This document shows, piece after piece, positions 1 to 48,274 of a stretch of DNA of 64,000 nucleotides. Position numbers and translations under genes: made by a program. Position 1 is the first letter of the stretch, and the number at the start of each line of letters is the position of its first letter. Source of the stretch: a virus (taxonomy: Duplodnaviria > Caudoviricetes); IMG/VR virus record IMGVR_UViG_3300044675_007236; one strand, written 5' to 3'. The notes beneath the pieces were generated by a model, which did no database searches, was not told where the DNA came from, and was given only the letters and a program-made list of their open reading frames with translations.

Positions 1-171
1 CCAGTTGGAGATAAATTCCAATCTAACCATGTAGTTTCCCTTGTCCGTTTGGACAAAAGGAACTTCGGCAACACAAATACCTTCGGTCGTGTGAACGGCA
101 AAATCCCGCCACAGGCAGGTGCCAGGCTTTAACCTGGACACCAGCTCTTCTAAGTTTTGTAGTTTTTCCAC
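1..171 (-). CDS. hypothetical protein, 5' part only (runs off window edge)
   Basis: Manual translation from GTG at 171: VEKLQNLEELVSRLKPGTCLWRDFAVHTTEG..., open to position 1; starts immediately after the stop of the upstream gene. Confidence 0.55.
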   Translation of the reverse strand, partial: MEKLQNLEELVSRLKPGTCLWRDFAVHTTEGICVAEVPFVQTDKGNYMVRLEFISNW

Positions 172-172
172 G

Positions 173-550
173 TTATTTCTTTGGGTCCATGAAAATGACA
201 ATGAAAAAAACTTCTAGTGACATGCGGGATTCAAACTTTGCAACCCACTCAAGCTCCTCGGCTGACAAAGTTTCCTTTGTCTTATTGAGGATAGTAATCT
301 CGCTGTCTTTAAGTTCTCGAAGTTTGCGATCCAGAATCTTGTTCATCGATCTGCGAAAGACAGGGCCTGGTTCGCCTCTCTGAATAACAAATCCCAACCA
401 GAAAGCGTCCTGAAACGCGTGCACTGTGTTAGTGACGAGCTTTTCGTTGCGAACTTCTTTAACCGGTGCTCCCGGCTTGTCCTGGACCTGCATCGCAGAA
501 AGCGTGAAAAGACTAGACAAAGTAAACAGAATCAAAATGATCGTACGCAT
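173..550 (-). CDS. hypothetical exported/membrane-anchored protein (~125 aa)
   Basis: ATG at 550 preceded by AAGGA; N-terminus MRTIILILFTLSSLFTLSA looks like a signal peptide. Confidence 0.65.
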   Translation of the reverse strand: MRTIILILFTLSSLFTLSAMQVQDKPGAPVKEVRNEKLVTNTVHAFQDAFWLGFVIQRGEPGPVFRRSMNKILDRKLRELKDSEITILNKTKETLSAEELEWVAKFESRMSLEVFFIVIFMDPKK

Positions 551-567
551 GATTTTTCCTTGTGAAT

Positions 568-1370
568 GTAAATTAAAGATTACCGCAGCATTCACTGAAT
601 GCGGTAAGCTTGTGTCCTCTGCATTTGCCAGGGCTTGGAACCTGCCTCACCGTGAGGGCTGCATTACACGCCGCAACTCTGCAAAGATCCTCACTGATCT
701 TTACGCTTGCGGCAGGTCGGTCATGTAACTTGACCGGTGGTATAGAGTGAGCTATGCATTTTTCTACCTGTATGCTCAGGCTCTTAGCGTAGAAGTACGG
801 GCAAGTTTCCGCTCTGCCTAGCGATCCGTTCTTCCACGGATTATTACTGGCCCCTTCGCGGTAGCTTTGCGTCGGACTCTCTCCGCGTGACTTGTCGTTA
901 CTGATCAAGTCCACTGCTGACGTTTTTTAGTGTCGTCAGTACCACGTTACCTTTGGTTTAGCGAGAAGGTATTTCTCGGAACGTTTACTGCTTTTTAGCT
1001 CCGCCTTGAGATTGTTATAGACAACGCAAGACGCCAACATAAAAGCCCACAGAAATTTAGGGCTAGTTGTCGGAACAGTTTTCACTTTCTGGGGAATGCC
1101 CTTTCGGACTTTAGTTCAACCCCGAAACCGTGCCACGTGTACCTTTACACGCCACACAGTAATGCTTTACAAGACCCATAAAGAGAAGATCTTGGTAAGG
1201 ACGACACAAGTGCTAGCCGCCCGCAAATATCGCAAAGACAAAAGACGCTGTTACCCTCAGCTTGATTTTTACATCAAGCGAGTGCGGCCTTTGCGATACT
1301 CGACTTAAGCCAGTGAAAATACGTTTGCTTTTGTATTTCGACCGACTTGCAAACGATAAGTCGTCTGCAT
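568..1370 (-). ncRNA. candidate giant structured non-coding RNA (~800 nt; GOLLD/ROOL size class, family unverified)
   Basis: No credible ORF. At least 17 stem-loops, e.g. 580-607, 645-657, 670-713, 718-736, 767-780, 800-818, 825-840, 917-939, 962-978, 1045-1063, 1098-1109 (GUCC-GAAA-GGGC), 1135-1152, 1170-1194, 1261-1278, 1279-1302, 1317-1338, 1343-1363. G-U pairs in 1098-1109 and 1170-1194 favour the minus strand. -10-like box upstream; terminal hairpin with U-rich tail. Confidence 0.7.
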
Positions 1371-1373
1371 ATT

Positions 1374-1400
1374 ATTATGACTCGTTTTTAACGAAAATTA
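1374..1400 (-). promoter_or_regulatory. putative promoter for the structured RNA
   Basis: CATAAT -10-like hexamer at 1374-1379 in an AT-rich stretch right after the stop of the last structural gene; -35 weak. Confidence 0.35.
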
Positions 1401-1404
1401 AGCA

Positions 1405-1701
1405 CTAAAAAGTATACTCTACAACCTTACCATTTTGGGCTACTCTCAGTCTAACCTTATCAGCACTAAGCATTTCTTTAAGTCGCTTCTTTTTCTCCAC
1501 ACCCATGTTGATGATAGATTGCTTGATCGTCTGCATGGTCTGCACACGTCTGGCTGCTGCCTTGTTACAAGGTTTACAACTTTTCTTCGCAACCGGTGCG
1601 GCACCGCTTGCGAGGAACGGAAACTCTCGTACGAAGTTAGGATTTGTAGCGAGCGTGAGCAACACCGTATCTTCAAGTGTAAGTAGCTTGTGTGTAGCCA
1701 T
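1405..1701 (-). CDS. hypothetical basic protein with CxxC
   Basis: 98-aa ORF with TAATG coupling to the upstream gene; SCKPC motif. Confidence 0.75.
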   Translation of the reverse strand: MATHKLLTLEDTVLLTLATNPNFVREFPFLASGAAPVAKKSCKPCNKAAARRVQTMQTIKQSIINMGVEKKKRLKEMLSADKVRLRVAQNGKVVEYTF

Positions 1702-2138
1702 TAGTTTGAGCTCGAGGTAGATGTGTCAGGAGCATCCGGTATCCAAACGACTTGTGTTGTTTTCAGTGTATCTAGACGGTTCATTGCTTTGATCAAAATT
1801 TCGACTTCGTGCTTGATCTCATCCCATATGGCCTGTGCCTGGGCCGACGAGGCAACGTCTAGCTCGACATAACTAAGACGGTAGTACGGCCAACCTTGAT
1901 CTGGGTCCGGGGCACCAGCAGGATAGTCGGCTAACTGGGGAGGTCCAGCTACCGCTTCAAATACGTCTGTACTTAGATCGGTGTACGGGCTAGGTGTGTT
2001 GTGTCTGTAGATAAAAACATTTCCGTCTATATCGTTGCCCTCGAAGTCTGTGACATCTATACGTAAACGATAAGCACCGTAGTTTGGAAAAACAACAGTG
2101 CCTGTTTCTGCTTTTGTAAGTTGTATTCGTCTAGCCAT
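1701..2138 (-). CDS. hypothetical protein (possibly virion structural)
   Basis: 145-aa ORF with GAGG SD; operon context. Confidence 0.75.
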   Translation of the reverse strand: MARRIQLTKAETGTVVFPNYGAYRLRIDVTDFEGNDIDGNVFIYRHNTPSPYTDLSTDVFEAVAGPPQLADYPAGAPDPDQGWPYYRLSYVELDVASSAQAQAIWDEIKHEVEILIKAMNRLDTLKTTQVVWIPDAPDTSTSSSN

Positions 2139-2153
2139 TGCCTCAGCCTCGGT

Positions 2154-2768
2154 TTAGATATCGAGCAACGATTTCATTATCTCTAGTTTTGGTTTTTTTG
2201 CAATATTGCAGGCTTGCGACGTACAGTGAATTAGTTGGTCGTACACCGGGTATTCTGCCACTGTAAATTTTTTGGTAAACGCAATAAGCCCAGTCGCCAG
2301 CATAATCATATCGGAAGTGTGGGGTCTATCGTGGATTTGAATAAAGTGCTCATACTGTGCGGCTAAGTTACAGAATTCGCGACAAACTCGCAGGTAGTTT
2401 TCTGCGGAGCCTGACACGGTGCAAGGTACGTGACCGCAGTGGACGACGAGTTCCGAGGATTCAAAAGCATCTGATTGTGTCAGCCCGGTGTTCACGACAT
2501 CATAGTCTATCATGACCCCACCTCCAATTTCAGCCATTGCCAACCATCGCATATAGCAATGATAGTCGTACTTGCCTGGATTTACAGTTGGTAGCCTGGA
2601 GACAGTATCGACATATTGTTGGTAGAAAGTAGATCTTCTTGCAACAGCTTCGCCTATAACTTCTAATTGCCAACCATTACGCTCCCAAGATTGGCGACAA
2701 ACTTCTATTTGGTCTGGTTGGCCTGTAAGTTGGCTTACAGGTTCGTAGTAGGTAAAAACACGTTTCAT
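2154..2768 (-). CDS. putative GT-A-fold glycosyltransferase with DxD motif
   Basis: ...RWLAMAEIGGGVMIDYDV... resembles the R-x-x-x-x-x-x-x-GG-x-x-x-D-x-D segment of DxD sugar-binding transferases (GT32-like). Confidence 0.6.
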   Translation of the reverse strand: MKRVFTYYEPVSQLTGQPDQIEVCRQSWERNGWQLEVIGEAVARRSTFYQQYVDTVSRLPTVNPGKYDYHCYMRWLAMAEIGGGVMIDYDVVNTGLTQSDAFESSELVVHCGHVPCTVSGSAENYLRVCREFCNLAAQYEHFIQIHDRPHTSDMIMLATGLIAFTKKFTVAEYPVYDQLIHCTSQACNIAKKPKLEIMKSLLDI

Positions 2769-2770
2769 AG

Positions 2771-4765
2771 CTATCTCTTAATCTGTGATATATCGAAGTC
2801 AGGATCCCACGGAAAACGCTGGCTTGCTCCGCGTCTACCGCCTTGTTCTCGAGAAGGACAAGCTATCAAACTTTTATTCTTGTTCCATTGTTTTATACCA
2901 AAACCGGCTTGGTGTACTTGTTCGCCAATTGTGATGTCTCCGCCGTTGTGTAGTAGCCTACAGTCAGGCACATCGGCCTGTCGCATAGCCTCCGTTTCCA
3001 GAGCCCAGCACCAGCCTACAGCAAAGTCGATCACAGAACCATTGGAAACTTCTTCTTTCCCCGTCTTTGTACGTAAGTGCTTGCCCTTATGCCACATAGC
3101 ATCCTTAAACCACTTGTCAGGACGATGCCCTGCCCCCGCATAAACGCTGAGATCGTGATACATAATATTACCATAAAGCCTAAATCCGCTTTTATGATTA
3201 GCTACTATTGTTGTACAAAGATCTCCCAACCAAGCGGGGTTAGCTACCCAAGTGTCATCGTCAAACCACATTAAATACTTAGTAGTAATAGGATGAGATT
3301 CGTCATAAAACATTTGACGCATTACGGGATACTTGAAGTCGTTAGTATCGTGCTTGTATATCTTAGTAACTGGCACTGTCTTTAGATAATCGAGTGTAGC
3401 TTTCGGTACTTGGTTTGTAGCAACTCTAAGATCTAATTGGTCGTTCGGTACTGTTCTAAGTATTCCGTTTATACATCTTGTAGCGAGCTGCGTATGCTGT
3501 CCGTAGCAAAGTACAAAAACTGTAATCTTTCCGCCTAGTATCGGATCGCTTAAACCTGGTACAGCCTTAAATATACTTCCAACTTGATTTGCTTTTAGTT
3601 CTAACGGATGAACTTTTTGATGTGTTTTTTGTGTTACATTAGGTCTAGATGGTTCTCTAACCATTTTTACATCGTGCGGCTTATGCTCTACGAGCTCTAC
3701 CGCAGGTATCACAATGTTATGTCTTACCTCTTCCTGTGCGGTAGTAGGTTGCAACACTCCAGATTGATAGTAAGACATGACCGCGGCTACAACTTCGTCA
3801 GAACTAAGCATATCGTGACAGCCTGCTACCGCGTGCGTAGTCGCGGGCTTAACTGGTTTCTGACATAGCAGATGTATTTTGCGACTGCGATCAGTCGGAT
3901 CAAGCGGCACTACTCTATTTTTCCAGCAACCGTAGCTCTCGCAGCACGGTAGCTTTCCAACGGTGTGCAAGTACTTGTGCGGTATAGTTACTGCTTCTGC
4001 GTTAGCTCCGAACGCCTGATACTCGTCAGTGTAAGCTTCAAACCAAGGTTCTTCTCTACCGCCCGCGTACACCACGCACGGTTTATCGAATGCGGCTGCG
4101 ATATGCATAGCACCTGTAATCCCGCATATAACGCCGTCGGAGTGCAGTATTATGTTCCACAGGTCTCTTACATTATCTGTCTGACCTACAAGGTTAAGCG
4201 TACGCTCGAGCGGCGGGTGTATATGATTGGTTTGAGTAGCACCAACCTGAACGCAATGTATGTTATCGTTTAACAGTTTATCTACGACTTCTTGCATGCG
4301 GTGAGAATGCCAGTGTTTAACAGTAGCGTCTAACTTACCGCCTGATACCACAACCCAATATCTACCTGTCAGCCTTCTAACCCTTTCATCGTCTGACAGG
4401 TGTAAGTCAGCTTTAGGTTTTGTCACGGGTACTTTTATACCGGTTTTGACTTCGAAATCATGATGGTACCAAGCCAGTATATGTCTTTTGTTGCCCTGTG
4501 AATCGATACCGTGCTGTTTAATTGCTTTACCCCAATCAAGGGTGACTAGCTTGGCTTTTGACCTTTGGCTTTCAGAAAACTTTACAACATACGGATTGTT
4601 CCACCATACGTTAGTAAAGTTGGTACTAACCTCAGTCTCGTACTTGCCCGGATAGGCCGCATGCAGATCACGTATAAGTGCCGTAAAAAGAACAGTGTCG
4701 CCCAGAGCGTGCGGGTGACCGTGCCTAACTATTAGTGGAATTTTGCCTTGCATTTTGCCTTGCAT
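2771..4765 (-). CDS. bifunctional glycosyltransferase: N-terminal GT9 (heptosyltransferase-like, GT-B) fused to C-terminal GT2-like (GT-A) domain
   Basis: GT9 motifs ALGDTVLFTALIRDLHAAYPG and LNLVGQT...GVICGITGAMHIAAAFDKPCVV; C-terminal ITVFVLCY...YLMWFDDD; start may be 4753. Confidence 0.8.
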   Translation of the reverse strand: MQGKMQGKIPLIVRHGHPHALGDTVLFTALIRDLHAAYPGKYETEVSTNFTNVWWNNPYVVKFSESQRSKAKLVTLDWGKAIKQHGIDSQGNKRHILAWYHHDFEVKTGIKVPVTKPKADLHLSDDERVRRLTGRYWVVVSGGKLDATVKHWHSHRMQEVVDKLLNDNIHCVQVGATQTNHIHPPLERTLNLVGQTDNVRDLWNIILHSDGVICGITGAMHIAAAFDKPCVVYAGGREEPWFEAYTDEYQAFGANAEAVTIPHKYLHTVGKLPCCESYGCWKNRVVPLDPTDRSRKIHLLCQKPVKPATTHAVAGCHDMLSSDEVVAAVMSYYQSGVLQPTTAQEEVRHNIVIPAVELVEHKPHDVKMVREPSRPNVTQKTHQKVHPLELKANQVGSIFKAVPGLSDPILGGKITVFVLCYGQHTQLATRCINGILRTVPNDQLDLRVATNQVPKATLDYLKTVPVTKIYKHDTNDFKYPVMRQMFYDESHPITTKYLMWFDDDTWVANPAWLGDLCTTIVANHKSGFRLYGNIMYHDLSVYAGAGHRPDKWFKDAMWHKGKHLRTKTGKEEVSNGSVIDFAVGWCWALETEAMRQADVPDCRLLHNGGDITIGEQVHQAGFGIKQWNKNKSLIACPSREQGGRRGASQRFPWDPDFDISQIKR

Positions 4766-5719: not shown

Positions 5720-6126
5720 GCTACGACCTGTACTGTAAATGTGTCTATAAGTGCGTTATTTGCATTGTTACGTACTTCTACTGTTTGCGGACTTACCTTA
5801 GCCGTCAAGGTGCTGTAACAAGTAAACTTAACCCACTGACCAGCTGTTACTGCGAACGTGCTGCCAGGGCTGTCGGCTACCTGTATCCATGGCGGCGTTG
5901 TTGGTTGCCCGTTTGGGTTTAAAGTTGCTTCAGAAGCTGCTACTTGATAGAAAAGTTGAATATTGGACGGGCTTGTCAAGTTTACAACTTTAAGTGTTAC
6001 ACCGTATGTAAGTAATTTACTGGTGATAGTGCCGCTTGTTGTGCCTAAACTCCACTGTATAGCTTCCCAGTCTGGGTTAACAACGCTTGGTGGTTGTACG
6101 TTAAACAGACCAGCAAATGGTAACAT
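5716..6126 (-). CDS. beta-rich fibre-associated protein (~136 aa)
   Basis: ATG at 6126 overlaps the fibre stop (TAATG); Thr/Ser/Val-rich beta-strand pattern. Confidence 0.7.
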   Translation of the reverse strand: MLPFAGLFNVQPPSVVNPDWEAIQWSLGTTSGTITSKLLTYGVTLKVVNLTSPSNIQLFYQVAASEATLNPNGQPTTPPWIQVADSPGSTFAVTAGQWVKFTCYSTLTAKVSPQTVEVRNNANNALIDTFTVQVVA

Positions 6127-8270
6127 TATATTGTTGTATCTCCAGCTAGTACAAAGTTGTTTGCACTTCTTTGGATCAGAGACACGACTGCCCATCTACC
6201 TGCTGTTTTAGTGTGACTTTGTCTGTTGTTTATGGTTGTACCCGACGCATTAAAAGTAACTTGACCTGTACCTGACTGTATCACAGTAACCGTAAAACCA
6301 ACTGGTAAGCCTGTAGGTACCGTTATCGTTATAGCGTTACTGCATTCCAAGACTACACCGTTATCACCGGCTCCAAGTGTTCGCGATGCGTTAGCCTCGG
6401 TTACAATTATACCTGTACCTGTAACATACTTATTGGAAGTGATACCACCGGTGCTAAGCATATTAGTGCTAGCGTTGTAACTAAGAGCTGGCGACGTTGT
6501 ATCGATGTTAGGCGTTTGATTACTCCCGCCCGCCGCCACAAATACAACGTAAAACAAAGAATCTGCGTCTGTGGCTGTTGCGTTTATAGCTGTGCTAGGA
6601 CCCGTCGCACCGGTAGAGCCAGTTACTCCTGTGGCTCCTGTAGTCCCGGCAGCTCCGTTAGCACCTGTTGGTCCGGTAGCACCTACCGTCCCACTTATGC
6701 CTGTGGCACCTTGCGAACCTGTAGCCTGTAACGATAAGACAACTTGGTCTGACGCGGTGTAAGTTCCGTTTGTAACAATACTCTCTACACTAAAATCAAA
6801 ATAGGTTGCTTCTTCAGTTACAGCGGTAATTCGATACAAGCCAAAGTTAGTCACGTTGTTTATCAACCACGTCTTTATAATGTCGCTAGCTTTAAACGTG
6901 TCTAACCATGCCGTCATATCTATGTCATTGTAATTTGACTTTTCAACGTAAATATGCTCGACAGCATCCAATACTGCGCTATCAAAATAAACTTGACCGT
7001 GGGAAGTTAACGCCATTATCTTGGCAGATTCTATCTCAGTGTCTGCGTAGAAATAGCTGTCGTCACCTGTGTGTTTTAAAGGAAATACAGGGGCCTCTGG
7101 TGAAAGGTTGCTGTTAAACTCCCAGCTCATCAGAAAATCATTTTCGTCGGGTGTAGGCGGGCCGGACGGGCCGGGTGGTCCTGTTGGCCCTGTTGGGCCT
7201 GTTGGTCCCGAAGGCCCGGTTGAACCTTCGCAACAAGGCCCTTGTGGCCCAACGGCACCTTGCGGACCTGCAGGACCTATAGGTCCTTGTGGGCCTACGT
7301 CACCCTGAGGTCCTTGATAGCCTTGAGGTCCCCGATAGCCTTGAGGTCCCCGATAGCCTTGAGGTCCGCGGTATCCCTGCGGCCCGCGATAACCGTAAGG
7401 TCCACGGTATCCCTGCGGACCGCGGTACCCGGTTGCTCCCCGACCACCTAGCGGTCCTTGAGGCCCTGTTGGGCCTTGGTTACCGTCTGGGCCTGGATTG
7501 CCGTCTGGGCCTGGATTACCGTCTGGGCCTGGGTTGCCATCTGGGCCTGGATTACCGTCTGGACCGCTAGGTCCGGCTGGGCCTTGTGGTCCTTCTGGCC
7601 CGCTTGGTCCCGCGGGTCCGGTGGGTCCGGCTGGGCCTTGTGGTCCGTTTGGTCCTACTGGTCCTTGTGGTCCTTCTGGCCCAACGGGTCCTTCCGGTCC
7701 GTCAGGCCCTTGCGGTCCGGCTGGGCCTTGTGGTCCTTCCGGACCTTCTGGACCTTCGGGTCCTTGCGGCCCCTGTGGGCCTTCTGGTCCTGTTGGACCC
7801 TGTGGACCTTGTGGGCCTAACTGCGGGCTGGGTATTCCAAGATTTAAATCAATAGAGAACGTACAATCGCCAGATTTTGTTACGTCAAGCGAGGCAAACG
7901 GAGCTCCGCCGGGGCCTACGGTACTTACAGTGGCACTTCCGCTAATTTCCGGGCAAGGAAAAGCAATATCCAGCGTAAAGGTGTAATCGCAGCATGCACC
8001 TTTAGTTATTATGAGACTAGCGTTTTCTCCACCAATTGGCACTACGGTGGTATCAACATCGCCCGCACCTATTACAGGACAAATAGGATCGGGATCTAGC
8101 ATCGGAACCGGCAGCGACGGGCAATCGAAAATATCAGTCGGTGCCTGCGGTACCTGTGGATTAAGCAGCCAATTACCGCCAGGTATAGGAAAAATACAAG
8201 GCACATCGCATTTGATAACATCAAATACAGGTGACTGAGGTCCTTGTGGACACGGAGTCGTCGGTGCCAT
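6126..8270 (-). CDS. collagen-like tail fibre (714 aa)
   Basis: Cys/Pro-rich N-terminus, long G-X-Y repeat region, second GAT-type block, and a C-terminal fibre-tip-like beta domain ([27 protein letters not shown]). Confidence 0.85.
7155..7817 (-). repeat. coding 9/18-bp tandem repeats (collagen G-X-Y, ~73 triplets)
   Basis: Blocks of [12 protein letters not shown] and GYRGPQ repeats in frame within the fibre gene. Confidence 0.95.
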
Positions 8271-10121: not shown

Positions 10122-11806
10122 GCTACTGCCTCGTCAATTCGCCAGTACGAAAAATAGCCTGCAGATCTTTTTGTGTAGAAGCCTGCGTTACCGGCGTCAG
10201 TTTCCCATAACGTTCCAGGCAAACTTGTAGATATTGCAACATCTACAAGTGCAGTATCCACGCTCTTAAGAACAGCCTGCAAATTAACGCTTGTCCTGGT
10301 TATCTCGTTGGGTGTAACCGTAAGCTCGAGATGATACCATTGATCTATAGCCGCCGACGGTACCGCTATTGTCGACAACGGTACTGCGTTTATACCGTTG
10401 AAGTAATACACTCCGAAAATTAAGTTATCGATGTCTAACAAAGCAAACACATACGTATACAGGTCGGCACTATTTAGTCGATAATTTACAATGATTCCGG
10501 CGTTATTTTTGCTGGCTGTACTTAGAGATATCACCTTCAAGTCTGTCGTGTATCTTCTGTAAAGCGATTGCGAATCCAATGTAAACAAGGATATGTTTGT
10601 TCTGGATAGGCTAGGAAGATTCGCTGTACCGTAGCTGTACGAAAAAAGACTAACGGAAGCAGACTGACTGTCGCTGATCGACGACTCACAACCGAAAGCG
10701 GTATTGTTAGGCGGCGGCCCAACGCAACAGAATGCTTCTTCCGGGCTGTCATCAGGAGACATTCCCCAAGTAGCCAAATCCATCGGCGAAAAACTGTATG
10801 CAAAACCGTCATCGAACGTGTCGCAGTATGGTAAAGACAAAAGCGTACTCATAGAATCGCTTATGCTTATGTCAGGTTGTACTGGTGGTTCTGGTGGGTC
10901 TGGATCTGGTATCACAGCTGCCGGTACTTCAGACGGAAGTTTACCGGTGTCCAGCTCAGGCAGGAACGGCGGAGCACATGTGTCCGACAATCCATACTCG
11001 CAGTCTACAACTACACCGCAATCGGCTGCAGTTTTACCTACAATCGCACAGCCTTGAAACTCTAATGTAAGTGTACCGTCACAATCTGGCGACAATCCGT
11101 TAATGCTCTCAATTGGTTGCGGATCGACGCAAGATCGAGACCCGACGCGTCTACCGCATGGCCCAGCAAATTGCGAAAATACTGATTCCGTGTTCTGCGT
11201 TGCAGTCGCTGCTGGCGGCTCTTTTAACCTGAAAACAATAACGTTGTCGTACACGACTCCGCCAATGCTTCTAGCTTCCTTCACTATCTCTAACGGTTGC
11301 TCTGCGTTCAGTCTAACTAAACCAGATACGGCCTTTTCTATGTTGGCAATACCTAGCGTTTCTAATGGAGGTTTACGGATAGGCCTAGCTGCTTTTGCGG
11401 TGAGGCGAGTCTGCAAAGGCGAACTGAACACGCCTCTAAAAAGCTCGTCTGTATTACTTCCAAAAGTGATAAACCCAGCCACGCCACGTTCAAAAGTTTC
11501 TAACCTGTACGTGCGATACGGTGTCAAACTGGCTTTTTCTAAGCTGATGCCCGCTATCAGTTTACTTTGTTGGTTGGTGTTATCTAGTTGATCTGTAACC
11601 TCGATAAGTAGCGTTACAATAAATTCGCTACATGTCACAGCGCTTATAAAAGCGTATTTACCCAGATCCCGGTTCCAACGCAACTGCATGTCTGCGATCA
11701 AAGAGGACGATAGCCGGTGACCTTCGTTTGAGAGGCACGAAGCTGTATCGTCGATCGGATACGCATTTTGTTCGTTGATGTTGTACCAGTGATTGTTGCG
11801 TATCAC
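10118..11806 (-). CDS. Cys-rich tail-tip protein, paralogue 3 of 5, with C-terminal lectin/LamG-like beta domain
   Basis: Likely GTG start at 11806 (GAGG SD, TAGTG overlap); NINEQNAYPI; PIESINGLSPDCDGTLTL; C-terminal DQWYHLELTV...AGFYTKRS...FSYWRI pattern. Confidence 0.7.
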   Translation of the reverse strand: MIRNNHWYNINEQNAYPIDDTASCLSNEGHRLSSSLIADMQLRWNRDLGKYAFISAVTCSEFIVTLLIEVTDQLDNTNQQSKLIAGISLEKASLTPYRTYRLETFERGVAGFITFGSNTDELFRGVFSSPLQTRLTAKAARPIRKPPLETLGIANIEKAVSGLVRLNAEQPLEIVKEARSIGGVVYDNVIVFRLKEPPAATATQNTESVFSQFAGPCGRRVGSRSCVDPQPIESINGLSPDCDGTLTLEFQGCAIVGKTAADCGVVVDCEYGLSDTCAPPFLPELDTGKLPSEVPAAVIPDPDPPEPPVQPDISISDSMSTLLSLPYCDTFDDGFAYSFSPMDLATWGMSPDDSPEEAFCCVGPPPNNTAFGCESSISDSQSASVSLFSYSYGTANLPSLSRTNISLFTLDSQSLYRRYTTDLKVISLSTASKNNAGIIVNYRLNSADLYTYVFALLDIDNLIFGVYYFNGINAVPLSTIAVPSAAIDQWYHLELTVTPNEITRTSVNLQAVLKSVDTALVDVAISTSLPGTLWETDAGNAGFYTKRSAGYFSYWRIDEAVA

Positions 11807-13452
11807 TATTCTTCCTCTGGGGCACAATTACACGACAAACAACTTGTACTTCCACTCATAGTCTGTCGCTCAGATATAGTGTTACCATAAACAACATCAG
11901 GCACAGTTATACCCGCAACTCCGCAAAAAGAAACTATGTCTCCGATAAGATCGCTAGCAATATTTGTCTTAGGCTGACATTGTCCGCTTTCGGCTACTTG
12001 GTTTTCCCAGTACGCGACTACGCCAATAGATACCGAATAAGCCCCAGGACCAGCTGCAAAACAGTCAGGTAGGCACTGTTTACCGTAGAGTGTAGTTACC
12101 GACTGTGGATCAGCGTAATCAACGGTAAAAAGCAATATGTGATTCTCTGCGTCTACGGCTTGAGCCGCCACAGGCTCTGGTTTGTAACAGGTGGTTGGAC
12201 CCTCTAAATACGTGTTCGGACAACTGAAAGCATCTGTGCCATACGTTATCGCACCGAACAGCCTTGGTATAAAGAAAATTTGTATTTTCAAATTGATAAG
12301 ACAACAGTTTGTCGGGTTACAAACGGCGACACCCCAGCGTACTTTGCAGTCGGTGTCCGTGGCAATGTTAACGCGAATAAAGTCACTTTCCCGCAATTGC
12401 TTTTCAGCCAGCCAACGATCTTTATTAGCCCTGTAAAAGTCTCTAGCATCCTCAGCTGTGTGCGCTATGTCTCGATAAAGAAGCCACTGTCGCTTTATGC
12501 CTTGGTAGGTCCTGGCGTAGTATTCACAGTCGCAGCAGTTTCTACAATCATTACCAAATTTAACGGTAGCTCTAGCTTGATTAGGCGACAGAATGCCAGA
12601 AGAGTAGTTAAACGTTCTAGGGGTTGAACTAGAAAGCGAAAGCGGTCGCTGCGTTCTTATACACCCTTCACTGTCTAACGTAAAGTTGTTATGACTGTCG
12701 CTTCGAACTTTGTTGACCGTTCTTAAGACTGTAGCTGTATCCACACAACCTGGAAATACGCCCAGACCTGAACCGGGCTCAGCTGACAGTTGAAGCTTAG
12801 TCGATTTCCTGACGCCGTCCACTAATCCAACCGAACCAAACAGGTTTAACGTCGGAGAGTCAGCCACTATAGGTTCCGGCAACTCTATCGTGAAATTATA
12901 GCCGTTCTGAAGCGTTAAAGCCTTGGCGGCAACTGTCTCATTGCCAATTTTAATCGACTTAATCCTGGACGGTAATTCGTAGCCGCATTCCACGTACAAC
13001 TCACCGTTAACTGGTTCTATGTTGTTATCGTACGTTAGAATCAGACTATCGGTCACATCTTCCGGAGTCCATTGTGTGTGTATCACACAACGACACACAG
13101 CGTCCTGTGTTGCCCATTCAATTACCCTTAAACGGCTGTTCCATTCTTTTACTGTGTAATTAGTTGCAATCGTCGAGTCGAAAACCACGTTACCTTCAGT
13201 ATCTTCGACAACTAGATCGTAGGCGTGCGTTGGTGTAGGTCGATCCGGGAAAGCCGGTACGGAATTTGTCCCAAACCCGTAAAGCCAAGCCAACTTAAGC
13301 GGATACTTTACCTGGTTATTGTTCTCGAAAGAGACAAAAAAGTCCGTAAACAGACGATAGATATCACTGGACGGGGATATAAAAGGATAGAGGTTCCCAC
13401 TATTGGGCGGTTGATTAAGTCCTATCGGTTGTCTACCGCGTGGATGCGTCAT
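11806..13452 (-). CDS. Cys-rich tail-tip protein, paralogue 2 of 5
   Basis: NSGNLYPF; VLRTVNKVRSDSHNNFTL; CRNCCDC followed by a helical segment. Confidence 0.75.
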   Translation of the reverse strand: MTHPRGRQPIGLNQPPNSGNLYPFISPSSDIYRLFTDFFVSFENNNQVKYPLKLAWLYGFGTNSVPAFPDRPTPTHAYDLVVEDTEGNVVFDSTIATNYTVKEWNSRLRVIEWATQDAVCRCVIHTQWTPEDVTDSLILTYDNNIEPVNGELYVECGYELPSRIKSIKIGNETVAAKALTLQNGYNFTIELPEPIVADSPTLNLFGSVGLVDGVRKSTKLQLSAEPGSGLGVFPGCVDTATVLRTVNKVRSDSHNNFTLDSEGCIRTQRPLSLSSSTPRTFNYSSGILSPNQARATVKFGNDCRNCCDCEYYARTYQGIKRQWLLYRDIAHTAEDARDFYRANKDRWLAEKQLRESDFIRVNIATDTDCKVRWGVAVCNPTNCCLINLKIQIFFIPRLFGAITYGTDAFSCPNTYLEGPTTCYKPEPVAAQAVDAENHILLFTVDYADPQSVTTLYGKQCLPDCFAAGPGAYSVSIGVVAYWENQVAESGQCQPKTNIASDLIGDIVSFCGVAGITVPDVVYGNTISERQTMSGSTSCLSCNCAPEEE

Positions 13453-22155: not shown

Positions 22156-23823
22156 TTAGGTTGCAACCGGTATGGAAGAAACAATGTTCAGATTCACGTT
22201 TGACGTTTCGGCGAAAAACTGAACTGTCTTAGAAGTTACCATTTTTTCAGGTAGTTCTGGAATTAGCAAGGCGTCATCACTTCTGACGTACTTAATTGTA
22301 CCGTCCGGCATGCGAATTCGACCTAGGATATCAAGTTCAGTTACGTTTAGTCTGCCCTGCAAGAAATTATGAACTGTATCGACAATCGCCGAACCAGGTA
22401 AAACACCTTGGAAATCTATCGCGTTAATTTCATCAATAATCGCTGCACGAATAGGATCTAGCAAGGGGGCTACGTCGTCCGCAGCTTTGTTTATAGTGAG
22501 CGTGACGCTGACAAAACAAGGAACAGGTGCTTTAATCAGAGCGTCAGCTCCGTAATGTCTGATGTCCCGGCTAGAAACTAAATCCTGCAGTTCTTTGATG
22601 TAAGGTACACCGGTTATCTCGTAAATGTAATCGGCAGCCTGGCCTACAGCCAAGTCTGCAACGGGAGTAACCGTGTCTTCGAATCGGACTATAGCGTTTT
22701 GAAAAGCCGTATAAGCCCCTTCTTCAACTGTGGCGATGTCTGGAAGAAAACCAGCTCCGGTTAAATCGATAGACCGAGTATCGGAAACAATGTTAAAACC
22801 TGACACAACAAAAGCAGCATCAGATCTACGAATCTTGTCTATCTCATAAAAACCAGGTAACACTGAAGCGGGTACAGTAAACTGCCACTGGCTTGTACCT
22901 GTAACCGTTGACACGCTAATGCAAGTAGCTGACGCGACAGCCGTTTTCCTTTGTATTGCAGACTGCCCTCTGATATACCAATCAACCCTACCGCCAGTAA
23001 GCGTCGGAAAAATTGTGTGCTTATCTCGCAGCATTTCCGGGTCACCACAACCAACTATAGACTGGTTTGTAATCGAAGCAAATTGCGGCAAGCTCCGAAG
23101 GTAGGCCCGCATGTTTGTTCGGTTAGATAAAGCTTTTGCTGAAATACCCAGCTGCAATTCGTTCAGCAGTTCTTCGTTTGTTTCGGTATTCGTTCCGTCT
23201 TCAAACGAAGAAGTCGCGTAGCTTGTCGCGTAATTGACAATTGACCGATTAGGTACAATCAGGTCGCCTGCGTTGAGTTTGCGGTCAGCACCAATATCCG
23301 CGGCTTCTACTTCAATCGTAAAAGCGTAATTACCGTTGCTAAGCGGTGTTAGCAGTCGGTCGTTTTCGCTTAAAATCTGAGCAGATGCAATACGGCCTAC
23401 AAATGTTGCTGTTGTTAGATATTGAAAACCATTGGCTTCGAAAATACTGTTTTGAGGTATAGTGAGCGGTCTTAGTTCTGAGAGCTCTATGGTAACCGGG
23501 CCAACAGCTTTTGTTCCGGGCTTACGTACAATACCCCAGTTAGAAAGCACCTCGCTGACGACTGTATCATCGGCCAACGTTGGATCTTCCTGAATTTTTT
23601 GAAGGCTTCTGGCGGACTGATAGCGTTCTAAATTGGCACGAATAGCCGCGTCTAATACAGCGTGATAGTAAGCCAATGTATCTTTGAAAACGCCACGACG
23701 TAAATCCAATGCCGGATTAAGCTCTTGTAGCTGCGAGACAAGCCTGTCAAGCGTCTGCTGAACATCTGCGGAGTCAAGTTGAGTGAGATCAGCTATTTCA
23801 AAGTCAGAGTAAGTTAAAGTCAT
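22156..23823 (-). CDS. baseplate wedge protein, Baseplate J / gp6-like
   Basis: RKPGTKAVGPVTI, LTIPQNSIFEANGFQYLTT, EVEAADIGADRKL, GTNTETNEELL, GGRVDWYI motifs of the baseplate J family. Confidence 0.85.
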   Translation of the reverse strand: MTLTYSDFEIADLTQLDSADVQQTLDRLVSQLQELNPALDLRRGVFKDTLAYYHAVLDAAIRANLERYQSARSLQKIQEDPTLADDTVVSEVLSNWGIVRKPGTKAVGPVTIELSELRPLTIPQNSIFEANGFQYLTTATFVGRIASAQILSENDRLLTPLSNGNYAFTIEVEAADIGADRKLNAGDLIVPNRSIVNYATSYATSSFEDGTNTETNEELLNELQLGISAKALSNRTNMRAYLRSLPQFASITNQSIVGCGDPEMLRDKHTIFPTLTGGRVDWYIRGQSAIQRKTAVASATCISVSTVTGTSQWQFTVPASVLPGFYEIDKIRRSDAAFVVSGFNIVSDTRSIDLTGAGFLPDIATVEEGAYTAFQNAIVRFEDTVTPVADLAVGQAADYIYEITGVPYIKELQDLVSSRDIRHYGADALIKAPVPCFVSVTLTINKAADDVAPLLDPIRAAIIDEINAIDFQGVLPGSAIVDTVHNFLQGRLNVTELDILGRIRMPDGTIKYVRSDDALLIPELPEKMVTSKTVQFFAETSNVNLNIVSSIPVAT

Positions 23824-39886: not shown

Positions 39887-40612
39887 TTAAGGTCCTTGGT
39901 ATCGACTTTTTAATGAAATGTCGTTTTCACCAAGAAAACTGGATAGTGAAACAGCTTGCAGCGGTAGTGATTCTTCTCGCAACTCCCAGGTGTGCTCGTA
40001 AGCCCAGCTGACAGTGATCGGTACAACGTAGTTTTCAGTAGATTCTTCTAATTCCTGAATCGCACCAACTTCGGTCACATTAAACTGCCGTAAATCAAGT
40101 TTCTTCCGTATTATCGGCGAAAACTCAAGTAACTGGTTTTGTACCTCGGTTGCGAGCACTTCAGTAGAAGCCCCTGTTTGATGTATGCAAAAAAGCGTGT
40201 GCGAACCCACAAAATGTGTGGAATATCGCGTTATAGCACCCTTTTCGTTTTTGTAGGCGACCAATCCTTCACCCTGAATTTGATGGGCAAAACCCATAGC
40301 CAAATTTCGGAAAGAATTGCGTTTGATCATAATCGCAGGACGTTTTTCAACTATATCGCCCCGAAATCTATGAACAGTTTCGATCAATATACCGGAATCA
40401 GGTTGCTCTTTCCATAGATATTGTTTGAGCTCTGGCATCAATATGTTTTGAGAACTAGACCACTGACGTATAAGAAAATCTCTAAAGAAACCCGTTATAA
40501 GTATTGGCTGCCAATTGTTCTGACACAAGAAATCGAAATTAACCGTACTTTGCGTACCGTAGTTATCTTTAGACGGCTGAGGATCCGGCGTTGGGCACCA
40601 ATCAGTGGTCAT
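39887..40612 (-). CDS. tail terminator / tail completion protein
   Basis: RPAIMIKR, GSHTLFCI, YVVPITVSWAY; located between neck and sheath genes. Confidence 0.65.
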   Translation of the reverse strand: MTTDWCPTPDPQPSKDNYGTQSTVNFDFLCQNNWQPILITGFFRDFLIRQWSSSQNILMPELKQYLWKEQPDSGILIETVHRFRGDIVEKRPAIMIKRNSFRNLAMGFAHQIQGEGLVAYKNEKGAITRYSTHFVGSHTLFCIHQTGASTEVLATEVQNQLLEFSPIIRKKLDLRQFNVTEVGAIQELEESTENYVVPITVSWAYEHTWELREESLPLQAVSLSSFLGENDISLKSRYQGP

Positions 40613-40821
40613 TTACGTTTATCCATTTGTTGAATAACAAGTTCCGGATCGTAATCCCATTTTTTCATATTTAGCTTAGTAACAAACGGATTACTGCCTT
40701 TAGAATTAGTCTTTTCTTTTGCTTTTTCTGCTAAATGTGAAGCCTTGGCGTGCTCCTCGTTTTGAGGCAAACCTAGAGGATAATGCAAACCCGACGGAGC
40801 AAATCTAGGGATATGTGTCAT
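40609..40821 (-). CDS. small hypothetical protein
   Basis: ATG at 40821 (TGATG overlap); ~70 aa. Confidence 0.55.
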   Translation of the reverse strand: MTHIPRFAPSGLHYPLGLPQNEEHAKASHLAEKAKEKTNSKGSNPFVTKLNMKKWDYDPELVIQQMDKRK

Positions 40822-43405: not shown

Positions 43406-44494
43406 CTAGACTTCGCCAAGCTTGTACCAACCTTCTTTGCTGATATAGACATTCATCACGTCCGAAAAGTATTTGTTGTATTTAGGTGCAATCTTTTCTA
43501 AAGCAAACTGTTCACCAAATTTACGACAATCTTCCGGTTTAATTTGATCAATAGTTTTGACAGCATTTACAAAATCGGCAAAAGTACGGCAGCGATAACC
43601 CGTTAAACCGTGAGGATTATTTTCCGTAAAAGCCCCCCAGTCCGTGGTGATTGTCGGGGTACCGGAAAGCAAGTTTTCTATTTGCACGCCGCCGAAAGGC
43701 TCAATATATTGGCTGGCTACAAAGCTAGCCTTTGCGTCTCGCATGAGCTTTTTTCGGGTTTCAACATCTGCGTAACCTACGTACTCTACGCACGACGGTA
43801 GTTTGTAGTTGTCGTCTTTTTGGCCTGCAATAACTAACTTTATACCTAGCTTTTCGGCAACTTGTATCGCAATATGTACACCTTTGCCTTCGTAAACACG
43901 CCCAAGATACAAGAAGTAGTCCTGCTTTTTGTCACTGTATTCGAACTCGGACAAATCGAAGTAGTTAGGAATAACTACCTCGTACCAATCCTGATTACAA
44001 GTTTTTACACCTTTAATTCCGCAGTAAGCGTGATAAATGGCGTAAGATTCGAAAACTTTCCATCTGGCCCAGTGACCATCGGCGTATCCTATGCCTGGTT
44101 CTACACATATTAAATCAGGATGAGCGTCGCAAACTGGTCGTACACCAGACCCCCAAAACGGTAGGATAAAGTCTCTTGGTTGTTTTCGTTTAGTTATTTC
44201 AGCAATAGCGCGGCTGTAAAAGGTTTGATACGCGTGATCGTTGACATCAAACTTAAAAAAATGCTTACGCCAATCGTGACTTCCATAGGCCTGAGCTAGA
44301 TCTGCGTTTGTTGTAACCGTAACGTGCTCGTTGCAGTCAAGCTGCGAATCTTCATGACCGTAATGAATGATGTGATGCCCGTGCATTCGCATCATCTTGG
44401 CAAACTTAACTACTTTTTGAGTATAGGCACACGCCACATAGTCTCGGTTAGAAACAGTGTGCGGTAGACCTAGTATGTGAAAACGAAAAGACAT
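43406..44494 (-). CDS. GT4-family glycosyltransferase (GT-B)
   Basis: Start [13 protein letters not shown] at 44494; [39 protein letters not shown] (EX7E motif). Confidence 0.9.
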
Positions 44495-44504
44495 AAAACA
44501 TCCT

Positions 44505-44972
44505 CTACAATAGCGCAGGTAAAATCGCTGTCTTTTTGCGTACGTCTTCGACCGTCGTCTCATTTGCCACACTCGCCGGGAACGATACTGGAGCAGCAGC
44601 ACTAGTCGGCTGCCCTGCGATCCTTGTGACGTTTGCATCTGTGTTTCTGTTCTCAATCGAAAATGTCCGAAGTATCGTTCTTGCCAGGTCTTTCCCATCG
44701 ACTATCCCTGCCGTGAATACGACGTCGTAGTCTTTACCGCCCTCATATACCGCATCGGAAGTGTCGATCACCAGTTCATGGAACCCAGCTTTCCCATCAT
44801 AATCTACGGCGGGTTGGGTTACTCCGGTAGTGAATTCTGTTGTCGAATCTTTGTAAATCGCGACTGTTGGATTTACTGTTGGGGTAGCAGGCAAAATAGC
44901 TTGACTGAACGTGTTGAATTTGACACGGATCTGTTGGCCTTTTTTGAAATCTCCAATGTATTTGCCTGACAT
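44505..44972 (-). CDS. hypothetical Ig-like structural protein
   Basis: 155 aa, beta-rich ([17 protein letters not shown]...[10 protein letters not shown]). Confidence 0.65.
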
Positions 44973-47047: not shown

Positions 47048-48274
47048 TTATATTATAGTCTCAGTCACGCTTGTCAGCTGATTGGCACTATAAATAAAAG
47101 TTTTTCGGTAGACGCGACTAGGGCTGCCGTGCGTGTAATCTAATTGCGTAAGTAGCCCGGCACTATATGTAAATATTTTTGACGAACCGTCGGAGTAAGT
47201 TATAGTTGAAACGTTACCGTTGACGTCATAAGTAATCGCAGGTGCCGAGCCGATTATCTGATTATAACGAACCTGCCGCAACTCGGGTAGCGACAAAGTT
47301 TGAGACGCTGCAAACGATAAAAGACCTGAAACATTACCAGTAGCGCCCGTGGCACCTGCAACCCCAGTTGCACCTTGGCTTCCTGTAGCACCAGTTGCAC
47401 CCTGAACACCTTGGCTTCCTGTGGCACCTGTAGCACCCTGAACACCCTGGCTTCCTGTGGCACCTGTAGCACCCTGAACACCCTGGCTTCCCGTTGCACC
47501 TTGGCTTCCTGTGGCACCTGTAGCACCCTGAACACCCTGGCTTCCCGTTGCACCTTGGCTTCCTGTAGCACCAGTTGCACCCTGAACACCTTGGCTTCCT
47601 GTAGCACCAGTTGCACCCTGAACACCCTGGCTTCCCGTTGCGCCTTGGCTTCCTGTAGCACCAGTTGCACCCTGAACACCTTGACTACCTGTAGCCCCGG
47701 TTAGACCTTGGCTTCCTGTAGCACCTTGACTACCTGTAGCCCCGGTTAGACCTTGACTACCTGTAGCCCCGGTTAGACCTTGGCTTCCTGTAGCACCTTG
47801 ACTACCTGTAGCCCCGGTTAGACCTTGACTACCTGTAGCCCCGGTTAGACCTTGGCTTCCTGTGACACCAGTTGCACCCTGAACACCTTGGCTTCCCGTT
47901 GCACCTGTAGCACCCTGAACACCTTGGCTTCCCGTTGCACCTGTAGCCCCTGCTACACCCTGCGTACCCTGACTACCAGTTGCACCTTGGCTTCCTGTAG
48001 CCCCTGTAATACCGGTAGATCCTGTTATACCCTGACTACCAGTTGCACCAGTTGCACCCTGAACACCTTGGCTTCCTGTGGCACCTTGACTACCTGTAGC
48101 CCCGGTAGCACCGGTCAAACCCGTAGCTCCAGTCGCTCCGGCAGCATCTCCAATATAATCACGAACATCTTCGCCGTTAGTAAACGTAAGCAGCTGCCTA
48201 CCAAATGCATCAGTGGTTAACTCGTCAATTTTAGTTAACTGATCTGAATAAGGCTGTGGTAGATAGTTCGTCAT
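47048..48274 (-). CDS. collagen-like fibre (408 aa), Thr/Ser-rich
   Basis: ~89 G-X-Y triplets of [12 protein letters not shown]; C-terminal YD-like repeats ([17 protein letters not shown]...FTYSAGLLT). Confidence 0.85.
47336..48139 (-). repeat. coding tandem repeats (GATGSQ / GVQ collagen units)
   Basis: Near-identical 9-bp-multiple units in frame. Confidence 0.95.

Follow-up and report, generated by a model that had tools for sequence, protein, structure and literature searches.

A conserved structured RNA of about 700 nucleotides in uncultured freshwater phages, with a probable self-cleaving ribozyme at its 3' end

The only large gap between genes in a 64,000-nucleotide (64-kb) stretch of phage DNA, IMG/VR virus record IMGVR_UViG_3300044675_007236 (here called the window), holds a conserved, strand-specific, covarying, noncoding structured RNA, and this RNA accumulates in lake metatranscriptomes as a discrete and abundant species at levels above those of its neighbors. 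We consider it probable, with good but not full confidence, that the gap houses an independent gene whose product, a stable and highly structured noncoding RNA (ncRNA) of ~700 nucleotides (nt), is terminated by a ribozyme and acts in trans. A self-cleaving twister ribozyme built into the transcript probably forms its 3' end, by a cut between positions 666 and 665, and seven relatives carry an unrelated ribozyme, of the hepatitis delta virus (HDV)-like type, at the same site. An earlier note, made from the sequence of this DNA, had proposed a giant structured RNA in the region, either GOLLD-like or of a new class.

RESULTS

The gap and its relatives

The minus strand carries every long open reading frame (ORF) of the window, with genes directly adjoining one another; the largest gene-free gap is the 854 nt at positions 551 to 1404, between the genes at 173-550(-) and 1405-1701(-). 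The next-largest gaps measure about 208 and 147 nt, in keeping with the description in the earlier note of a single large noncoding gap among abutting genes. The comparison of folding energy with dinucleotide shuffles whose failure the same note had named as a refutation came out in favor of structure, the minimum free energy (MFE) of the minus-strand gap being -291.8 kcal/mol versus -246.1 +/- 9.5 kcal/mol for the shuffles (z = -4.8); the plus-strand gap was also more stable than shuffles (z = -3.8).

The gene at 1405-1701(-) encodes a protein of 98 amino acids (aa), is conserved, and lies directly upstream of the RNA in every relative; among 5.8 billion proteins it has only seven homologue clusters (55 to 100% identity). 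The contigs of these homologues, together with three IMG/VR contigs and two metagenome contigs, furnished about ten distinct loci from five clades of uncultured freshwater phages (the window; L001, L002/L003, and L012/L013; L004 and L005; L046, L069/L146, and L014; L006 and L008/L009/L010; L011), and in each relative a gene-free stretch of 0.6 to 1.1 kb follows the 98-aa gene. Among at least 119 stretches listed by the metagenome scan, L046 and L069/L146 were the only true relatives and nearly all of the rest were chance matches. A search of viral contigs with the pattern CCGGGGAAGTTCYGG... returned three relatives that were already known and two new matches (L029 and L030), which lie inside a GC-rich ORF and were dropped. 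In L005, about 280 nt of other structured sequence (505-790) is inserted after the first hairpin, and the contig ends before the remainder of the RNA.

Structure and covariation of the RNA body

Applied to the seven closer sequences (alignment A2), RNAalifold gave a consensus of 187 pairs, 44 of them with compensatory double changes, arranged in about 28 helices, most of which show compensatory changes; all of the elements named in the earlier description of a hairpin-dense region with at least 17 stem-loops were found. As a guard against circularity, an MFE structure was derived from the window sequence alone and changes were counted in the other sequences. Double changes preserved the pair in 53 of 71 cases, compared with 8 to 16 of 34 to 46 in controls in which the pairing partners were slid by 1 to 5 columns, and 47 pairs carried a compensatory change, compared with 8 to 15 in the slid controls.

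Three covariance models (R1, R2, and R3) were built from the close group and then retrieved the distant clades at significant scores. Together they comprise 153 base pairs, 81 of which show compensatory changes, and overall 95 to 97% of cells were paired, versus 30 to 53% after sliding; the observed numbers of paired cells and compensatory pairs and the observed covariation score were reached by none of 500 shuffles. No matches to these models were found in unrelated contigs.

The models correspond to three domains of the RNA, all on the minus strand. The 5' domain (1197-1371) comprises a 5'-terminal hairpin, a hairpin at 1308-1347, a 20-bp helix at 1223-1304, and a hairpin at 1199-1222; its model, R2, scored 125 bits in L014, 52 in L005, 49 in L008, and 28 in L006, and in the resulting alignment (A7) 96.9% of cells were paired (36 to 47% when slid) and 25 of 49 pairs were compensatory (4 to 8 when slid). 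The middle domain (960-1162), with a hairpin at 1127-1160, a domain closed by GGGG/CCCC at 1091-1123, a multibranch structure at 987-1079, and a hairpin at 962-978, is represented by R3, which scored 50 bits in L006 and 47 in L008; in alignment A9, 96.2% of cells were paired (35 to 53% when slid) and 31 of 49 pairs were compensatory (2 to 7 when slid). The GGGG/CCCC domain and the GAAA-capped hairpin that had been noticed inside it are both present, but the GAAA hairpin is variable and is absent in L004 and L069. Best conserved across clades is the core domain (775-955), of the form GCAAAGCUACCG...GGGGCC...CCG-GGAAG-CGG...GCUUAGCAAGC; its model, R1, scored 67 bits in L008, 42 in L006, and 24 in L011 (a partial match), and alignment A6 had 95.5% of cells paired (30 to 43% when slid) and 25 of 55 pairs compensatory (2 to 7 when slid). 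The body closes with a 46-nt bulged hairpin at 669-714(-), first noticed as a bulged helix at 670-713, which contains 17 pairs, 5 of them compensatory, and ends 3 nt before the predicted cut; it precedes the ribozyme in relatives of the twister type and the HDV type alike.

The consensus energy was -186.6 kcal/mol for the sense strand versus -134.7 kcal/mol for its complement, and G-U pairs accounted for 175 of 1,283 paired cells; the fold thus belongs to the minus-strand RNA. It does not encode protein. Frames between stop codons are short, with neither their positions nor their lengths agreeing among the seven relatives, variable columns are spread over the three codon phases (98, 86, and 95), and indels in the RNA alignment are not multiples of three. 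ORF 573-914, considered as a candidate protein gene, was rejected, as it is not conserved and shows no codon periodicity.

Expression in lake RNA

About half of the words of a 1.4-kb query occurred in six lake metatranscriptome runs, and 62 to 93% of the words of a query limited to the RNA occurred in at least 24 RNA runs. When contigs of four lake metatranscriptome runs were placed on window positions 1 to 3000, each run gave one discrete RNA contig of 650 to 666 nt (X15, 695-1360, depth 16.8; X16, 705-1360, depth 12.2; X17, 705-1355, depth 9.7; X18, 711-1360, depth 20.4), with a depth 3 to 6 times that of the neighboring gene fragments, which were 150 to 310 nt long with a depth of 2 to 4; positions 2100 to 3000 were uncovered. 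This pattern of coverage rules out uniform carry-over of DNA. The shared upper boundary of the contigs (1355-1360) lies 8 to 14 nt below a -10-like element, and in X17 a separate contig at 425-648 leaves a break between 649 and 704 that brackets the predicted cut and indicates that read-through into the next gene exists. As to the exact ends, strand, and level of the RNA, the contigs give strong hints and not proof. The earlier note had envisaged a minus-strand RNA of ~800 nt; the discrete transcript was found, but its mature length is nearer 700 nt, from about 1366 to 666, and covariation, noncoding character, and the contigs of the four runs together mark 666-1368(-) as the probable extent of the mature structured ncRNA.

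Two unrelated ribozymes at one site

A lax Rfam scan of window positions 400 to 1600 (1.2 kb) matched the twister type-P1 self-cleaving ribozyme (RF03160) over the full length of the model at 611-670(-), with 55.8 bits and an E value of 1.6e-11, and no other Rfam family matched there at an E value of 10 or below. The same element was the only notable match in a scan of the whole window (E, 8.3e-10), in which nothing matched at gathering level. The cmscan alignment reads GU|AAUGCAGCC, with P2 as UGCA/UGCA, P3 as CCUCAC/GUGAGG, P4 as CAGG/CCUG, and AAA, so that the required features of the class are present, namely, a U-A cleavage dinucleotide in L1 (predicted cut, U666|A665), P2, P3, P4, and the conserved GCC/AAA of L2. 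Twister folds as a double pseudoknot in which L4 pairs with L1 (T1) and with L2 (T2) (PMC6154101). Here L4 is UUCCAAGC where the consensus has UCCCAAGC (UCCC to UUCC) and L1 is GAGGA where the consensus has GAGGG; the two departures would fit a single compensated change of G-C to A-U in T1, in what we take to be the pairing register. Near-identical twisters occur in L046 (54.4 bits; E, 9.8e-12) and in L069. The CAGG-UUCCAAGC-CCUG element that had been read as T-loop-like is P4 and L4 of this ribozyme, which the earlier note had missed.

The twister is absent in L001, L002, L012, L004, L006, L008, and L011, where an HDV-like (theta-type) ribozyme is found instead. This element of ~55 nt is the best-conserved part of the locus, with 91 to 95% identity between clades that share 67% identity in the RNA body or whose RNA bodies cannot be aligned. 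A nested double pseudoknot fits all 12 sequences (the seven relatives and five other copies from phage contigs): P1 begins with a G.U pair, P3 is GCC/GGC, P2 is present, P4 is optional, L3 pairs with the bases after P1 to form P1.1, and J4/2 is C-N-R-A throughout, with the catalytic C first. Compensatory changes occur in P1 (GGCACC/GGUGCU to GACACC/GGUGUU), in P1.1 (UCU/AGA to UCC/GGA), and in P2 (GAAUCA/UGAUUC to UGUAAGUCA/UGACUUACA). The P4-bearing copy of L011 matched the Rfam family HDV-F-prausnitzii (RF02682) over the full model, starting at the predicted G1, with 25.9 bits (E, 0.003) against a gathering score of 44; the P4-less copies had no HDV-type match in Rfam. Since a ribozyme of either class cleaves at the 5' border of its own sequence, the upstream RNA would in either case end after the terminal hairpin with a 2',3'-cyclic phosphate, and in the window this end would be U666.

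In the tree of the 98-aa neighbor the twister carriers do not form one clade, the window nesting with the HDV-type loci L001, L002, and L012 (support, 97/94) and L046 and L069 with L014 and L011. The RNA itself is a mosaic: over alignment columns 71 to 430 the window resembles L012 (86 to 98% identity), and over columns 731 to 904, the 3' part with the terminal hairpin, it resembles L046 (88 to 93%, versus 64 to 67% for L012), and therefore the twister arrived with a recombined 3' segment. The HDV-like type is found in both deep clades and so is probably ancestral. That an unrelated ribozyme occupies the same nucleotide position suggests that selection has favored self-cleavage there and not any one kind of ribozyme.

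HDV-like ribozymes were also seen away from this locus. In L016 (2142-3238(-)), L022, L017 (8065-8584(-)), and L025, they lie between cistrons, with two copies 440 or 1,017 nt apart; of the four sites shown, three have a highly stable hairpin ahead of the ribozyme, and all four have a Shine-Dalgarno (SD) sequence and an ATG within about 40 to 60 nt after it, an arrangement that looks like that of ribozyme-punctuated operons. In L027, a copy with the same P3/L3 core (3663-3722) directly follows the 3' end of a tRNA.

Promoter-like motif and downstream leader

Immediately after the stop codon of the 98-aa gene, all clades share the motif CT(T/A)AAT(T/A)T-N9-11-(C/T)GTGTCA(T/G)(T/A)AT, which in the window takes the form CTTAATTT-N10-AAACGAGTCATAAT at 1374-1402(-). 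The -10-like CATAAT noticed earlier just upstream of the RNA falls within it, at 1374-1379. In the complete genome of a relative (G001), the motif occurs at the RNA locus only, and elsewhere in the window it was not found, barring a weak look-alike at about 40526(-); its absence elsewhere in both shows that it is not a general phage promoter. By its conservation and position it may be a dedicated promoter of the RNA, whose mature 5' end we would place at 1360-1368. The look-alike, GTTAATTTCGATTTCTTGTGTCAGAAC at about 40495-40530(-), resembles the motif in the form TTAATTT-N10-GTGTCA and is found within the 5' portion of ORF 39887-40612, on the lower side of a 208-nt gap (40613-40820). The motif is duplicated in L011, L046, and L069; in L011 (3298-3470) a short hairpin RNA, with a U-run and a stem like that of a terminator, comes after the first copy, and the large RNA comes after the second.

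Beyond the ribozyme, positions 557 to 610(-) form the leader of the next gene, with a hairpin at 581-606, a U-rich tail at 570-580, ACAUUCAC at 562-569, and the SD sequence AAGGA at 557-561. The 3' hairpin with a U-rich tail described previously is thus present, but it lies beyond the mature RNA. In the close clades the same order (hairpin, U-rich tract, one or two copies of CAUUCAC, SD) follows either ribozyme, and the stems of the hairpin covary (UACCGCA.../GAGCCCUUGGA...). The leader is conserved downstream of the ribozyme in L012, L046, and L069, whichever type of ribozyme is present. By its appearance it is a putative control element, of a terminator-like or translational kind, of the message made by read-through. 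Both ACAUUCAC and the copies of CAUUCAC are complementary to the hairpin segment GUGAAUG, which could allow the strands to pair differently or to form a pseudoknot, or could serve terminator-like control.

DISCUSSION

We propose that transcription of the RNA would start at the dedicated, family-specific promoter-like motif just past the upstream stop codon and that the transcript folds, as covariation shows, into three multihelix domains ending in a long hairpin. From the known chemistry of its family, the twister directly downstream is expected to cut at its own 5' edge (666|665), which would give a precise 3' end, protected by the hairpin and bearing a 2',3'-cyclic phosphate, and would free the read-through RNA as a separate message with a 5'-OH for the next, variable gene. 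The ribozyme would thereby act as a 3'-end-forming device while polymerase could still run on.

Several observations weigh against this account or limit its precision. The twister match falls below the Rfam gathering score of 67.2. The lower boundaries of the RNA contigs lie inside the terminal hairpin, 29 to 45 nt short of the predicted cut; such a shortfall is usual where a 3' end is structured. Assembled contigs, moreover, cannot fix the ends, strand, or level of an RNA. The promoter assignment has the conservation and position of the motif as its whole basis, and a simple, generic sigma-70 scan did not call it. The alignments from which pairs were counted (A6, A7, and A9) are fitted to the structures of the models, with one spurious low-scoring row each in A7 and A9, and the RNA family consists of only about ten distinct sequences.

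The main rival to a stand-alone, trans-acting RNA is a long cis-acting spacer or leader. On this view the structural operon would end in a structured 3' untranslated region, or else the gap would provide the next gene with its 5' leader; the ribozyme's sole task would be to part the messages and make them stable, with the 700-nt fragment persisting as a by-product. Such an arrangement would accord with the HDV-like ribozymes that stand between cistrons elsewhere in L016, L017, L022, and L025, as it would with the hairpin, CAUUCAC, and SD sequence conserved after the ribozyme and with the read-through contig at 425-648. However, the genes downstream of the RNA vary from relative to relative while the RNA is conserved, its approximately 150 covarying pairs over 700 nt go far beyond the needs of a processing site, and it possesses a conserved promoter-like motif of its own; furthermore, its 5' third shows 87 to 98% identity between phages that share 90% identity in the flanking protein, and the fragment is sequenced 3 to 6 times deeper than either neighbor. 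We regard the cis-acting explanation as rather improbable. A role of the region at the level of DNA (an origin, a pac site, or a recombination hotspot) or its descent from a decayed protein gene, such as ORF 573-914, would agree with the excess stability of the plus strand and with the recombination breakpoints within the region, but the covariation is strand specific and rich in G-U pairs, the transcript is discrete and abundant, and the ORFs are not conserved, with indels and substitutions that ignore the reading frame; we consider this very unlikely. An excised and circularized ribozyme-bounded RNA or mobile element, akin to retrozymes and viroid-like RNAs, appears equally remote. A ribozyme-made 2',3'-cyclic phosphate is indeed a substrate for RtcB-type ligation, but each locus has one ribozyme and none at the 5' side, the locus is syntenic and not mobile, and no back-splice joints were present in the four metatranscriptome runs; circularization is also without support because the complete relative encodes neither RtcB nor an Rnl2-type ligase.

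GOLLD and ROOL, encoded by phages and prophages, are described as RNAs that have no known function and assemble into nanocages made of RNA only (bioRxiv 10.1101/2024.12.08.627333), and the RNA of the window resembles GOLLD (RF01998) and ROOL (RF03087) in its length (600 to 1,000 nt), phage origin, many conserved helices, and high expression. tRNA genes occur in the wider neighborhood of the relatives, the nearest being a tRNA-Met 3.4 kb downstream, but the RNA is not next to a tRNA island, as GOLLD and ROOL often are; there is no tRNA in the window, and no tRNA-like parts were found in the RNA or its variants. The preprint on GOLLD and ROOL (bioRxiv 10.1101/2024.12.08.627333) describes no ends that are set by a ribozyme, whereas a twister 3' end is predicted here. 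Infernal cmscan with lax filters on positions 400 to 1600 found no match to GOLLD, ROOL, OLE, raiA, HEARO, or RAGATH at an E value of 10 or below, and the GOLLD and ROOL models gave none at 0.1 or below in the whole window and none in the relatives. In spite of the similar size, the phage setting, the many helices, and the tRNA-Met, a divergent member of either family thus seems hardly credible, and of the two proposals in the earlier note it is the new class that stands, there being no Rfam family for the RNA body. Late expression and a tie to virion assembly, which the earlier note had also suggested, are conjectures whose sole basis is the location of the RNA where the structural operon ends.

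Theta ribozymes are a minimal HDV-like type of phages, found mostly at tRNA 3' ends; the 526 copies not associated with tRNA, 493 of them in noncoding regions, "likely serve unknown biological functions" (PMC10879173). The element of the relatives shares with them stems P1, P1.1, P2, and P3, a P4 that is small or missing, and a J4/2 that begins with the catalytic C, as well as a cut at the 5' edge that makes the 3' end of an upstream RNA, and L027 shows the classic order of tRNA and then ribozyme. It differs in that its substrate is an ncRNA of ~700 nt and not a tRNA and in its origin from lake water and not gut, and the window has a twister in its place. That twister agrees with RF03160 in its full-length match, U-A cut site, P2, P3, P4, and L4 core, and noncoding phage setting, and like the RAGATH-type structured RNAs near phage ribozymes it adjoins another structured RNA; it differs in a score below gathering level, one compensated T1 variant, and the absence of a RAGATH motif. 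It would here have a definable task, the production of a 3' terminus for a large RNA, in which it is interchangeable with an HDV-like ribozyme.

By analogy with GOLLD and ROOL, the mature RNA may be a trans-acting structural RNA, for example, a protein-binding scaffold or a self-assembling particle, a suggestion that we advance tentatively and at somewhat less than even odds. More doubtful still is the further idea that it represents a third, unrelated class of giant ornate phage RNAs, which during infection would act in trans as a self-assembling particle, a scaffold, or a decoy for a host or phage protein and would need an exact 3' end; the need for such an end (hairpin and cyclic phosphate) would explain why two different ribozymes are placed at the same nucleotide. 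In the relatives, nature has in effect run the experiment of exchanging the ribozymes, with an outcome suggesting that the cut is the thing that counts; both the phage twister and the non-tRNA theta ribozyme appear at this locus to form the 3' terminus of one large ncRNA. These findings bear on the purpose of the many phage twister and non-tRNA theta ribozymes, and also on the number and the roles of the different giant structured RNAs of phages. With its promoter-like motif, approximate ends, ~150 covarying pairs, and strong expression, the locus is well suited to experimental study.

Other features of the window

The window derives from an uncultured freshwater phage with a genome of about 200 kb; its DNA is present in lake-water metagenomes, and the complete relative, G001, has a genome of 204,794 bp with direct terminal repeats. 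Of the two genes that border the RNA, the upstream 98-aa gene has no match in Pfam or PHROG, and the downstream gene (173-550(-); 125 aa), with a signal-peptide-like N terminus, is not conserved in the relatives and has no relative among viral contigs. A blastn search of the gap against 50,697 records of isolated phages gave no match, nor was any repeat of the gap, of the type of a diversity-generating retroelement or other, found elsewhere in the window. Through an inverted match of 31 nt (77% identity, with an exact core of 12 nt) between 1101-1131 and 12612-12642, a segment of the RNA is complementary to mRNA from the gene at 11806-13452, at a level expected by chance for a window of this size.

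A gp6-like baseplate wedge gene lies at 22156-23823(-), and its product has no match among isolated phages. The glycosyltransferase encoded at 43406-44698(-) is 73.5% identical to those of T4-like cyanophages (cyanomyoviruses) of Synechococcus (S-CAM7 and ACG-2014f); this one gene hints at a picocyanobacterial host or at gene transfer. Genes for collagen-like tail fibers at 6126-8270(-) and 47048-48274(-) contain long arrays of GC-rich collagen repeats with a 9-nt period, which reach 67% GC in a genome of 45% GC.
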